Below the pieces are notes generated by a model that saw only the letters and a list, made by a program, of their open reading frames with translations, was not told the origin of the DNA and ran no database searches. A stretch of 64,000 nt of DNA from a virus (lineage: Duplodnaviria > Heunggongvirae > Uroviricota > Caudoviricetes), in IMG/VR virus record IMGVR_UViG_2718218136_000001; one strand, written 5' to 3'. A program made the position numbers and the translations under genes. Positions 597-12,626 of the stretch are shown in pieces (position 1 is the first letter of the stretch; each line of letters opens with the position of its first letter).

Positions 597-1155
597 ATGA
601 AAACAATCGAACAAAAAATTGAACAGTGCCGCAAGTGGCAGAAGGCAGCCAGAGAACGAGCGATCGCTCGGCAACGGGAGAAGTTGGCTGATCCGGTCTG
701 GCGAGAATCTCAATATCAGAAAATGCGGGATACTCTCGACCGCCGTATCGCTAAACAGAAAGAGCGCCCACCAGCCAGCAAAACGCGGAAAAGCGCGGTA
801 AAAATAAAATCTCGTGGCTTGAAGGGGAGAACACCAACGGCGGAGGAACGGCGCATCGCCAATGCTCTTGGCTCTCCCCTGCATTGCCTGCTATATGCAT
901 GGAGTAATATCTAATGAGGTGTCTCTGCACCATATCGCCGGTCGTACCGCGCCGGGTTGTCATAAAAAGCAATTGCCACTTTGTAGATGGCACCACCAGC
1001 ATGCAGCTCCGGCTGAAGTAAGAGAAAAATACCCATGACTGGTCCCTGTTCATGCCGATGGTGTGGTTGGAGGCAAGAAAGAATTCACCTTGCTGAACAA
1101 GTCAGAGATGGAGTTACTGGCTGACGCCTATGAAATGGCAAACATCATGCACTAA
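597..1155 (+). pseudogene. ref: Ref-like RecA-dependent HNH nuclease, disrupted (one frameshift near 885-905 and in-frame TGA at 1036-1038)
   Basis: ATG at 597; basic N-terminal region, then in a second frame the HNH motif ...CIACYMHGVISNEVSLHHIAGRTAPGCHKKQLPLCRWHHQH...; span of 559 nt is close to a ~186-codon gene; gene name from recalled P1 map position. Confidence 0.5.
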
Positions 1156-1316
1156 TAAATATATTATTTTTAATGATAAATGATTGACAACTGACAAGTG
1201 ACTTCAGTCAGAATCATCACACGCCCGGTACGGATGGATCCCTTTTCAAATATTCCATGGACGGCACAGTCTGAGTACCGGGCGCTACCTTCAGTTGTAT
1301 TGCTAAGCCGCCGCTG

Positions 1317-1762
1317 GTGGCTTTTCTTTTTTGTAGGGGCGCTATGGATAAGAAAATATGCGTTGTTTCAATGAGCGTCGGCAAACCGGCGTCAATGACT
1401 GCTGCATGGATCAACAATGAGCTGATCATGGCTGAGCGGACCAGCTACCCTGAACGCCCCGCGATATGGAACTCCAGCTGCTGCGAATTGCGAGAAAAAG
1501 AGGAAAAGGGTTTTATCGTGCTGGTGGAAAGGAAAACAGCTTTATTACCGGTCGAGTTGGCCAGCGTGTAAGGTTGCGTGATCCCTTCATGAACGGCAGA
1601 CCGGTACTGATTGAAGCAATGCAGATTTACAAGGAATTGGAACGCCAGAAAGCGATCAAGTTACCGCGCAATCCGGCAAATACATCCTTCACCAAAGCAT
1701 CTTCGATTCCGAACACGATAAAAAAGGCGATGAATTTTTCAACATCAACTGGAGCGAAATAA
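1317..1762 (+). other. two overlapping ORF fragments in different frames; possible disrupted gene of unknown function
   Basis: ORFs 1317..1571 and 1466..1762 overlap in different frames; no motif recognised. Confidence 0.2.
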
Positions 1763-2031
1763 CGAGAACATGTTCTGACGTTACTATGTTGCTTTGCGAC
1801 GGAATACAACAACGTTGCCAGCGCCGACTACATCAGGGCAATGGCTGGAGAAGTTGAGGCCCGCCAGGAGCCATCGTTACTAAGCCCTCTGATTAACAGA
1901 ATTCGCGGAACCCAAACGCTGGCACAAAAACGGGTGCCGAAAGGGGAATTAACAGGAAAAGGAAATTATCTATAAACGTCAATGCATTAGGGTATACTTC
2001 TCCATAGAACTATAAGTAAATGGAGTAAGTA

Positions 2032-10000: not shown

Positions 10001-10842
10001 TCAGCCATCTCTGCCGGATGTTTGCGCATCAGCACCACATCAACGATTGTACTGGTCCCGTTTGCGTCAAAAGTACCGGTAGGCAAGCGGTGAGCGCCAA
10101 GAAATTCAGCTTTACGGGATAGGCGCAGGCGTAACCGCTTCATGTTTGAACCTGAAACAATGGACGGCGGCACAATCACACACATGAATCCGCCAGGCTT
10201 TATCTTGTCCAGCATGCGGAGCATGAAGTAAGAACCCATGTCCGTTTCTTCTGCGTAAGGCTTATCGATGTTGCGTGTGTTATCACGACCACCGAACGGA
10301 ACGTTACCCACAACATGGTCGAATGAATCGTTAGGCGTGCTTACAGCCAGCTGTTCGAACGGGGAAATCTGTACGCTGTCTTCCGGGTGTAACAGCTGGT
10401 TTATACGACCGGAAACACTGCTGATCTCAGTCGCGGTCATCACCGTACCAACCGGTTTTGTCTCATTAAAAACGCCGGTGCCCGCCGATGGTTCCAGAGT
10501 GTTACCTACGTCCGCGCCGTAGAGCTTCATGATCTCCCAGACACCTTCAGCGATCGGCTTTGGTGTGTAATATTCGGAGACGGACCCGCCAATGCCGCCT
10601 TCACCGGTGTACCCAGCCAGGATCTGGCGCTGTTCATCTGTCAGTGTCGCGCCGTCCACCAGCGAATTAAGCAAATCTATCGCCTTCTGATTCGCCTCCC
10701 GGCGCAGTCGGTCATAGCTTTTGCCTTCCACCTTTTCCACGCCGTATTTAATCGGCGCTCGGTGAGATGTTATTGCCCTAATGTATTTTAATATTTCGCT
10801 GACACTTGAACAGCGAAACACCCCCATAGATAGCTTGTTCAT
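4090..10842 (-). pseudogene. darB: DarB-like giant N6-adenine methyltransferase + SF2/SNF2-type helicase fusion (~2250 codons), fragmented into at least 11 ORF pieces
   Basis: Collinear motifs on minus strand: MTase EPSAGTGVF and VVGNVPFG (9592..10842 piece); Walker A GFGTGLGKTTT (~8262-8290, hand-translated between listed ORFs); DEGH and LLTATPVVNTP (7438..7866); helicase motif VI QRNGRGAR (5483..6484); total span ~6753 nt. Confidence 0.7.
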
Positions 10843-10917
10843 TGGTAATCCTTAACAAGTGACTAGTGTTAAATTCCGTTAAAACACGATGCGAATTATT
10901 CTAATTAAGGTGCAATC
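10843..10917. promoter_or_regulatory. divergent intergenic region between darB-like gene and portal gene
   Basis: 75-bp AT-rich spacer between divergently oriented genes. Confidence 0.3.
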
Positions 10918-12626
10918 TTGGCAGACAATAAAATCACGCTATCCTCGGTCAGGAAGGCGCTGGCGGGGGTTTTTAAAGACAACGGAGAACGGGACAACAT
11001 CCTCCTGTCCGCGCTGGCTGTGCACGGCGGAAGTGGGTATTTGTTTTCTCGCGCAGGGGCACCGGTACAACTGTCCGGCTTCTTAGGCGGCAAACCGGGC
11101 GATAGTGGCATGGCTGGCGATGGGCTGGTGGACGGAAGTCGCTTTATCTTTGATGAAGTTCAACTGCCGGAAGACCGCTTGCAACGCTATCCGCTACTCG
11201 AAGAGATGGCGGTTTACAGCACGATCGCCACCGCGCTGAACATCCATATTACGCACGCGCTCTCTTTCGATAAGAAGACCGGACAAACCTTCTCTATCGT
11301 GCCGGTACACAACGGAAACGATAGTGACTATGACGCCGCGCAGGGGTTGTGTGACGAGCTGATGAACGACATCGGGCGAACCATCAACAAAGAGGTCGCC
11401 GGGTGGGCATTTATCATGTCTGTATTTGGGGTGGCTTATGTCAGGCCATACGCCAAAGAAGGCATAGGGATCACGTCTTTTGAGTGCTCCTATTACACCC
11501 TTCCGGGCTTCATCAAAGAGTTCGAGGTCAGCGGTAACCTGGCGGGATTTAGCGGCGATTATCTGAAGGACGCGTCAGGGAAAATGGTTTTCGCCGATCC
11601 GTGGGCCATTATCCCTATGAAAATCCCTACTGGCGGCCTAAGTCAAACCTTATGCCTGTGCACACTGGCCATAAGGCTTACAGCCTGCTGGATAATCCGG
11701 AAGAGCGCACACCGATTGAAACCCAGAATTACGGGACCAGCTTGCTCGAATACGCCTACGAGCCGTACATGAATCTGCGTTCGGCGATCCGCTCACTGAA
11801 GGCAACGCGTTTTAACGCGTCGAAAATTGACCGAATCATCGGCCTAGCGATGAATAGTCTGGATCCGGTAAAAGCAGCCGATTATTCACGCACCATTACT
11901 CAGACGCTTAAACGAGCAGCTGACCTGATGGAAAAGCGCGCACGCGGCGCGAATAACATGCCTACGGTGACCAATACCTTGCTGCCTATTATGGGCGACG
12001 GCAAGGGGCAAATGACGATTGATACTCAGACCATCCAGGCTGACATCAACGGCATTGAAGACATTCTCACCTATATGCGCCAGCTGGCGGCAGCACTTGG
12101 CCTCGATTACACCCTCCTGGGGTGGGCAGATCAAATGTCCGGCGGGCTTGGTGAAGGTGGATTCCTGCGCACGGCAATTCAGGCCGCCATGCGTGCCTCA
12201 TGGATCCAGCAGGGCGTAGAAGAGTTCATTCAGCGGGCTATCGATATTCATCTTGCTTTCAAGTACGGCAAGGTATACCCGGAAGGTGATCGCCCGTACA
12301 AAATCGAATTCCACTCCGTTAATACCGCTCTGCAACAAGAGCACAACGATAACCGCGACTCGCAGGCGAACTACGCCACCATCGTTACGCAAATCCTCGA
12401 TGCCGTCAGCAATAACAGCGTCCTCGCCAATTCCGATGCATTCAAACGTTACCTGTTCAGCGATGTGCTGGAGATTGACGAAAAAATCTCTGAAGCACTG
12501 GTGAACGAACTGAAAGCGAAAAGCGAGGACGACGATCACCTGATGGATTCCATCATCAAAACACCGCCACAGGAACTGGCGCAAATCCTTGAATCGGTCT
12601 TTAAAGAGGGAAACGATAATGACTGA
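10918..12626 (+). pseudogene. portal-like head protein (Prt-like), single apparent frameshift near 11600-11650
   Basis: Two overlapping same-strand ORFs (10918..11772, 11601..12626); position next to protease; TTG start. Confidence 0.45.

Follow-up and report, generated by a model that had tools for sequence, protein, structure and literature searches.

The closest described relatives of the element analysed here are intact P1-like prophages, represented by P1 itself (NC_005856), pJD053-144K (NZ_CP095788), pSJ2D-1 (NZ_CP074731), and pRHB41-C15_3 (NZ_CP056970), a P1-like plasmid from E. fergusonii. In the records of all four, the genes from c8 to darA are annotated as intact. The window, i.e., the whole 64,000-nucleotide stretch of IMG/VR virus record IMGVR_UViG_2718218136_000001, shares their gene order and 96–99.8% nucleotide identity with them over its length. 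However, it harbors 43 private indels between c8 and darA and, unlike the four relatives, lacks the lyz–ddrB segment.

Alignment to phage P1 yields 13 collinear BLAST segments with 96–99% identity, spanning P1 positions 1479–78246, and 816 P1-like plasmid records match the window. The collinearity extends across the structural, lysis, immunity, and replication modules, and the plasmid-maintenance gene repA and the Cin tail-fibre genes cin, S, U, and U' are each found as a single ORF. These comparisons place the window among the P1-like (Punavirus) plasmid-prophages. Its parA and parB genes are of a non-P1 type that is common to IncY P1-like plasmids, and its exact ParA is present on many P1-like contigs. 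A SIR2 gene occupies the position of res/mod in P1, as in many P1-like plasmids. The left tract is mosaic on a fine scale, its closest relative switching every 1–2 kb, and the best database identity is 98.0% there versus 99.8% in the tail region. Such mosaicism is ordinary among P1-like plasmids.

The features of the left end are as follows (coordinates of the window, strand, description).

20–14167, unstranded: tract of private small indels, 43 in total (39 deletions, 4 insertions), each of 1–6 bp
40–351, plus strand: c8 homologue, ORF intact
597–1155, plus strand: homologue of ref (RecA-dependent nuclease), in which 2 bp are deleted at 870 within a GCGC repeat and a private TGG>TGA change lies at 1036–1038
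1344–1975, plus strand: mat homologue, with deletions at 1458 (1 bp), 1482 (2 bp), 1529 (1 bp), 1669 (4 bp), and 1764 (2 bp)
2032–3330, plus strand: SIR2-family gene at the P1 res/mod position, with seven deletions (2517, 2575, 2965, 3022, 3103, 3180, 3264)
3382–3624, minus strand: lxc homologue, with a 6-bp in-frame deletion at 3605 that leaves the ORF open but two codons shorter
3621–4056, minus strand: ulx homologue, with four deletions (3729, of 2 bp; 3754; 3811; 3951)
4090–10842, minus strand: darB homologue (2255 aa in relatives), broken into at least 13 ORF pieces by 17 indels, five of them at 7300–8000
10918–12626, plus strand: homologue of prt (portal), with a single 1-bp deletion at 11624, where a CCCC run is read as CCC
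12619–13636, plus strand: homologue of pro (head processing), one base short in each of two A runs (13478 and 13544)
13633–13672, unstranded: unique pro|ddrA junction, a palindrome in which the right-end hairpin tip of an IS200/IS605-family TnpB element occurs twice, in inverted orientation
14060–15949, minus strand: darA homologue, with a 1-bp deletion at 14167, where CCCC is read as CCC

The indels break the frames of ref, mat, the SIR2 gene, ulx, darB, prt, pro, and darA. The final lesion of the tract, at 14167, alters the C-terminal ~45 residues of the darA product. At the other end, c8 starts with GTG owing to a private A>G change at position 40 and has a 2-bp insertion in an A run at the site of its stop codon (350). 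The tract is already underway where the window begins. The first-pass annotation had listed a Ref-like gene, a small gene at 3783–4053 (ulx), a SIR2-like gene, darB, and the portal gene as disrupted, and each of these does carry lesions. The list was nevertheless too short, as mat, pro, darA, and lxc also contain indels. Likewise, the concentration of lesions that it described is real, but the limits that it set (597–12626) are too narrow for a tract that runs from 20 to 14167.

Lesions amount to about 0.3% of the bases in the tract and are unevenly distributed: 39 fall within 1–9.7 kb (~4 per kb) and four within 9.7–14.2 kb (~0.9 per kb), the drop at 9.7 kb being a step (P = 5e-4). With P1 and pRHB41-C15_3 as indel references, 36 indels are private versus both in the ~12.7 kb on the left, compared to three in the ~41.6 kb on the right (binomial P about 1e-19). 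This imbalance agrees with the earlier view that uniform sequencing error is inconsistent with the pattern. The three such indels in the comparable remainder of ~42 kb are each non-coding or located in divergent sequence. To the right of darA, all of the P1 homologues found (46/46) are single ORFs, including those for tail, baseplate, sheath, capsid, lysis-holin, and replication functions. The tail fibre gene S, sit, dmt, repA, the par genes, and ban, previously reported as uninterrupted, are each contained in a single ORF.

None of the lesions is common to any of the about 87 relatives compared. The missing bases are present in all seven reference relatives (five close plasmids, P1, and pRHB41-C15_3); when 80 further P1-like IMG/VR contigs were compared locus by site, 808 of 811 comparisons showed them as well. 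For the portal lesion, the 35-nt context occurs in 0 other contigs of the viral and metagenome collections, while the context with the C restored occurs in 81. The exact lesion or junction patterns were not found in viral, genome, or metagenome contigs, and neither the frameshifted DarB N-terminal fragment nor the altered DarA product is on record. A search for the source record among phages, plasmids, and E. coli genomes likewise gave no hit at 99% or above. Privacy of this kind is what indel artefacts of sequencing or assembly would be expected to show.

The indels carry a signature resembling that of a sequencing platform, combining a 39:4 bias toward deletions with homopolymer enrichment; 15 of the 27 one-base deletions (56%) lie in runs of three or more, against an expected 15%. 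Indel errors in long-read assemblies are known to pseudogenise genes, and their described signature fits the tract (PMC12007338). In incompletely polished or long-read assemblies, the errors are small indels, mainly deletions and enriched in homopolymers, which generate frameshifted apparent pseudogenes; they affect a fraction of a percent of bases, yet break many genes (PMC12007338). The window differs from such assemblies in two respects: its errors are limited to one stretch of ~14 kb rather than being assembly-wide, and one event in three is multi-base or lies outside homopolymers. Nine deletions of 2–6 bp outside tandem repeats and seven one-base deletions at unrepeated bases are less typical of pure homopolymer error. 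A methylation-motif signature was considered and rejected, the tract indels showing no enrichment near GATC and a weak one at CCWGG (Dcm) sites (P about 0.04).

Substitutions do not follow the indels. Between 3.6 and 13.6 kb, there are 25 private indels and nine private substitutions. In mismatch-repair-defective E. coli, 5,324 indels were recorded versus 30,061 substitutions (PMC8510543), and the 25:9 ratio departs from that spectrum with P about 3e-14. Five indels are contained in a 1098-bp stretch that is identical to one relative (L003) and another five in a 765-bp stretch identical to a second (L004). Indels that equal or outnumber substitutions, and that also fall within otherwise identical stretches, are characteristic of artefact. 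The substitution divergence of the tract is no higher than that of the rest of the window. An excess of substitution-type errors was also considered and rejected; the private transitions and transversions number 26 and 12, a natural ratio, and the divergence of the tract is not raised.

The repaired reading frames have the same length as those of P1-like relatives and are conserved. After repair of the indels, the only in-frame stop is the TGA in ref, and the restored darB frame of 2255 codons (6.7 kb) contains zero stops. Codon differences between darB and its closest relative are mostly synonymous (80 versus 33 non-synonymous), as are those in prt (17 to 6) and pro (16 to 3). Genuine pseudogenes would be expected to show excess substitutions, a lost synonymous bias, and stops in the ancestral frame, and this combination is not found. 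Nor is there a sign of relaxed selection on all lytic-cycle genes, the homologues right of darA being intact.

At the pro|ddrA junction, the window lacks a segment of about 7.5 kb (P1 coordinates) that comprises lydE, lydD, lyz, ssb, hxr, and ddrB. The 40-nt junction matches the right-end hairpin of a TnpB element that adjoins pro in pSJ2D-1 and ddrA in pCombat11I9-3. In contrast to the TnpB elements of these P1-like plasmids, two hairpin tips alone are left in the window, fused into one palindrome, and no tnpB sequence is present anywhere in it. Collapse of an IS repeat was rejected as the cause of the junction because the window is without tnpB sequence. The junction is mechanistically sensible, and the junction together with the loss of lyz, ssb, and ddrB may be a genuine structural difference. 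The element may thus truly be defective, which makes some genuine damage more plausible a priori.

The lesions are private, confined to one region, dominated by indels, and biased toward deletions, and their repair yields conserved frames. The broken genes of the left end are very probably errors in the deposited consensus of one poorly resolved stretch of ~14 kb, not mutations of the plasmid, and we infer that their cause is technical. The left ~14 kb would have been resolved at lower quality than the remainder of the window, possibly due to proximity to a contig end, low read depth, or a long-read consensus that was never polished with short reads. The consensus caller would have lost bases, mostly in short homopolymers but also as skips of 2–6 bp, shifting the frame in nearly every gene of the tract; a stepwise change in read depth would give the density step at 9.7 kb. 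In the plasmid itself, ref, mat, SIR2, ulx, darB, prt, pro, and darA are most likely all intact, as they are in hundreds of related P1-like plasmids. Between decay and a locally poor assembly, the two alternatives left standing earlier, the evidence hence favors the assembly and speaks against decay, given lesions that are private, indel-dominated, and found inside identical stretches whose repaired frames are conserved. The further proposal that a broken portal would make the phage non-viable is unsafe, since the evidence favors assembly error over decay.

Genuine regional decay, in which accumulated frameshifts inactivated anti-restriction, accessory, and head genes in vivo in an already defective element, is improbable. 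The lesions are present in the sequence as given, and degraded enterobacterial prophages and their pseudogenes do resemble the window in having multiple frameshifts per gene, a nonsense codon (here the true nonsense substitution in ref), and a multi-kb deletion. The unique lyz/ssb/ddrB deletion lies in the same tract, and real recombination at inverted TnpB-element ends would yield its junction. Natural small indels are likewise deletion-biased and favor homopolymers (PMC10292909; PMC8510543). However, in real pseudogenes substitutions outpace indels several-fold, synonymous bias is lost, and stops appear in the old frame, whereas the 43 indels are accompanied by almost no private substitutions, natural spectra reach at most about 1 indel to 5.6 substitutions, and the long darB frame is free of nonsense codons with its substitutions mostly synonymous. 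Real pseudogenes are also usually common to related isolates, in contrast to the lesions here, and relaxed selection should also strike the tail, sheath, capsid, and replication genes, all of which are intact.

Two further explanations were considered. A collapsed consensus of two co-resident P1-like plasmids, in which diverged reads were merged and the caller introduced gaps where the copies differ, would be consistent with the shifting closest relative and the lower best database identity of the tract, but it is quite improbable: indels are not enriched near the polymorphic sites of the relatives (9/42 within 2 nt versus 9.9 expected; 17/42 within 5 nt versus 16.5 expected), mosaicism is a usual property of these plasmids, and substitution divergence is alike across the window. 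Alternatively, the indels could be real and simultaneous, the product of a single in vivo burst of error-prone, deletion-biased repair synthesis (break-induced or gap-filling) that scarred the adjacent 14 kb and was tied to a palindrome-mediated deletion between two inverted TnpB elements at pro|ddrA. The tract is contiguous, spans the unique deletion junction, and contains lesions that look simultaneous against the substitution clock. Yet the density is lowest beside the junction (9.7–14.2 kb) and highest 4–13 kb away from it, whereas a tract initiated at a break would show the reverse gradient, and the event would have knocked out eight or nine plasmid genes in a single step. A density of about 3 per kb is, to our knowledge, orders of magnitude above any known bacterial repair-associated mutagenesis. 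This burst is highly improbable; if it did occur, it would represent the bacterial equivalent of break-induced-replication mutagenesis, with an unprecedented density of lesions. Consensus errors account for the left-end lesions far better than any of these three.

Read literally, the record would pass for a defective P1-like prophage in which eight or nine genes, those for the portal and the DarB anti-restriction protein among them, are pseudogenes; annotated in this way, it would introduce false decay calls into comparative work on phage-plasmids. Three reusable flags for such cases do not require reads: the privacy of lesions to a single record, the indel-to-substitution ratio, and the conservation of repaired frames.

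Some of the differences may nonetheless belong to the plasmid itself. The TGG>TGA change in ref and the nine private substitutions could be real; the latter comprise five non-synonymous and four synonymous changes, an uninformative split. A CCTGG context for the ref TGA was ruled out, as the window's own lineage reads CCCATGG at this position. If the pro|ddrA junction is real, the endolysin gene lyz is lost and the element could be lysis-defective. The loss of the lyz–ddrB segment, if genuine, would also constitute a small, neat case of a deletion promoted by an inverted IS pair.

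In a megablast search of phage records, phages P1, P7, RCS47, SJ46, and relatives match window 1-13000 at ~97-98% identity. The window aligns with P1 positions 1479-78246 (NC_005856; loci L001 and L002) in 13 collinear segments of 96-99% identity, and its left edge lies directly after cre in the P1 order. Like many P1-like plasmids, the window has a SIR2-family gene in place of P1 res/mod. Its par, sim, and rlf modules are of a non-P1 type; at these positions, the annotation of pRHB41-C15_3, an E. fergusonii P1-like plasmid, has ParA/ParB family genes, a DUF5384 gene (sim), and hokD (rlf). 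By its sequence, the element is an ordinary P1-like plasmid prophage (Punavirus), with Escherichia or a close relative as host.

The first-pass annotation had reported disrupted genes clustered in the left 12.6 kb. This clustering is confirmed and is more extreme than noted, as the affected tract reaches 14167. Relative to P1, the first 2 kb contain 11 gap openings and the following 10.3 kb contain 25, compared with 0 in 10.8 kb and 1 in 5.3 kb for segments further right. In a MAFFT alignment of window 1-14200 with five closer P1-like plasmids (L003-L007), 42 indel events as far as 13544 are private to the window, and one further private indel lies in darA. Under a strict count, limited to indels that set the window apart from both P1 and pRHB41-C15_3, the left part (~12.7 kb) has 36 and the right part (~41.6 kb) has 3 (binomial P ~1e-19). 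The density drops as a step, from 39 events in 1-9.7 kb to 4 in 9.7-14.2 kb (P = 5e-4) and essentially none thereafter. The lesions are distributed over the left-hand genes as follows.

c8: intact
ref: one indel and a private TGG>TGA at 1036-1038
mat: five indels
SIR2: seven indels
lxc: one indel, an in-frame 6-bp deletion
ulx: four indels
darB: 17 indels
prt: one indel
pro: two indels
darA: one indel (14167)

A comparison of 63 P1 proteins with every stop-to-stop ORF in the window showed that ref, mat, ulx, prt, pro, and darB (13 pieces) are fragmented. From ddrA rightwards, the homologues found all lie in single ORFs, with two exceptions: darA, and the invertible tail fibre S, for which two pieces are expected. 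The c8 start codon is changed from ATG to GTG by a private A>G at window 40, with the ORF still open. The three right-side strict indels (19996, 34349, and 35763) are all non-coding or in divergent sequence. Two are deletions, one of 2 bp in divergent C-segment sequence and one of 1 bp in an A-run of the ant-kilA interval; the third is a single inserted base immediately upstream of the c4 antisense RNA region.

None of the lesions is shared with L003-L007, P1, or pRHB41-C15_3. No contig of the viral and metagenome collections contains the portal lesion in its 35-nt context; with the missing C put back, this context occurs in 81 IMG/VR contigs. When the 80 new loci from these contigs were projected onto the window, they carried the bases that it lacks in 808 of 811 locus-by-site comparisons, and at the two insertion sites covered by many loci (6991 and 8633) the extra base was absent in 28/28 and 43/43 loci. 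Window 6992-8090 (1098 bp) has 0 substitutions relative to L003, yet contains five indels, and 1134-1899 (765 bp) is identical to L004, yet also contains five. Over 3.6-13.6 kb, where at least 10 extra relatives are available, 25 indels remain private versus only 9 substitutions. The most indel-prone natural background is that of mismatch-repair-defective E. coli. Mutation accumulation in such strains gave 5,324 small indels versus 30,061 substitutions (PMC8510543), and against this proportion 25 indels among 34 private changes has P ~3e-14. Substitution divergence in the tract is not above that in the rest of the window, and the indel/substitution contrast between left and right gives a Fisher P of ~7e-16.

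Once the indels are undone by alignment to relatives, the only in-frame stop is the TGA in ref. Compared with the nearest relative, synonymous/non-synonymous codon differences number 80/33 in darB, 17/6 in prt, 16/3 in pro, 5/0 in ulx, and 4/0 in lxc, and the repaired frames look to be under selection. A darB with 17 real frameshifts would have drifted; its conserved frame therefore argues against real decay. Moreover, a prophage without selection should also show lesions in its tail, sheath, capsid, and replication genes, all of which are intact, so that the gene pattern is wrong for decay. Genuine decay of the region is thus contradicted on five lines (privacy, indel excess without substitutions, unraised divergence, selected-looking repaired frames, and gene pattern), and a biological origin of the lesions is judged very improbable. 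Of the two alternatives in the first-pass annotation, regional decay or a locally poor assembly, the latter is supported by private, indel-dominated lesions whose repaired frames are conserved.

The lesions consist of 39 deletions and 4 insertions. Runs of at least three hold 15 of the 27 one-base deletions (per-base expectation, 15%), and seven one-base deletions hit unrepeated bases. Three two-base deletions remove one tandem unit, while nine deletions of 2-6 bp are non-tandem. Proximity to Dcm sites is weakly enriched (P ~0.04); proximity to GATC is not. This mixture matches the published description of residual long-read consensus errors, which are mostly deletions associated with homopolymers, a smaller share lying outside repeats; with such errors, less than 1% of bases being wrong is enough to yield many frameshifted apparent pseudogenes (PMC12007338). 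The evidence supports reading the frameshift cluster as gene-fragmenting consensus errors, not as pseudogenes or a real feature. The stepwise density could reflect read depth changing in steps, e.g., towards a contig end or in a stretch out of polishing's reach.

Between pro and ddrA (13633-13672), P1 positions 20030-27545 (~7.5 kb; lydE, lydD, lyz, ssb, isaA, IS1, isaB, hxr, and ddrB) are absent. The junction, TTGACACCCTCCACGCCCTGACGGGCGTGGAGGATGTCA, is found in 0 of 489 matching plasmid records. Its left half and the pro flank match pSJ2D-1, in which a reverse-oriented IS200/IS605-family TnpB element adjoins pro; the right half of the junction and the ddrA flank match pCombat11I9-3, in which a 95%-identical element adjoins ddrA in forward orientation. 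The junction is composed of two inverted right-end hairpin tips of the TnpB element joined as one palindrome. In the simplest reading, an ancestor would have carried two inverted copies either side of lyz-ddrB, and all DNA between both right-end hairpins would have been lost by crossover or template switch inside the palindromic hairpin. Repeat collapse by the assembler was rejected as the origin: it would keep one IS copy, and no tnpB sequence is left anywhere in the window, so the junction looks like a real deletion. Although it sits inside the low-quality tract, the junction probably records a real deletion between inverted IS copies. If so, the element would lack lyz, the endolysin gene in the P1 annotation, and would be lysis-defective whatever the state of its portal.

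Two further explanations of the indels are less probable even than decay. That the reads of two co-resident P1-like plasmids were merged into one consensus is hard to credit, as the indels do not cluster at sites polymorphic among relatives. Least probable is a single episode of error-prone repair synthesis linked to the adjacent pro|ddrA deletion: lesion density is lowest beside that junction, and the frequency needed, ~3 per kb, is far above known bacterial mutagenesis. Consensus error is accordingly the preferred explanation.

The SIR2-family gene (2032-3330; annotated in relatives as "SIR2 family NAD-dependent protein deacylase") occupies the slot of the EcoP1 res/mod restriction system, which appears to be an exchangeable defence locus in P1-like plasmids. 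Neither the sim (superimmunity) genes nor rlfA/rlfB/pmgF of P1 are matched in the window (regions 32795-34170 and 37606-38298); two ORFs, at 32823-33362 and 33366-33887, lie at the sim position. The dmt methyltransferase ORF (51133-54420), at 1095 aa, is longer than its counterparts in P1 (754 aa) and in other relatives (754-862 aa); ~1 kb of this region (51367-52386) is matched by neither P1 nor pRHB41-C15_3. The parA/parB genes (43926-46099) match those of P1 weakly and are of the type of IncY P1-like plasmids, and many P1-like contigs encode an identical 403-aa ParA. The left region (1-13632) is a fine-scale mosaic in which the nearest of L003-L007 changes every 1-2 kb, consistent with frequent recombination among P1-like plasmids. 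In the SIR2 block, relatives fall into two clades ~10-14% apart.
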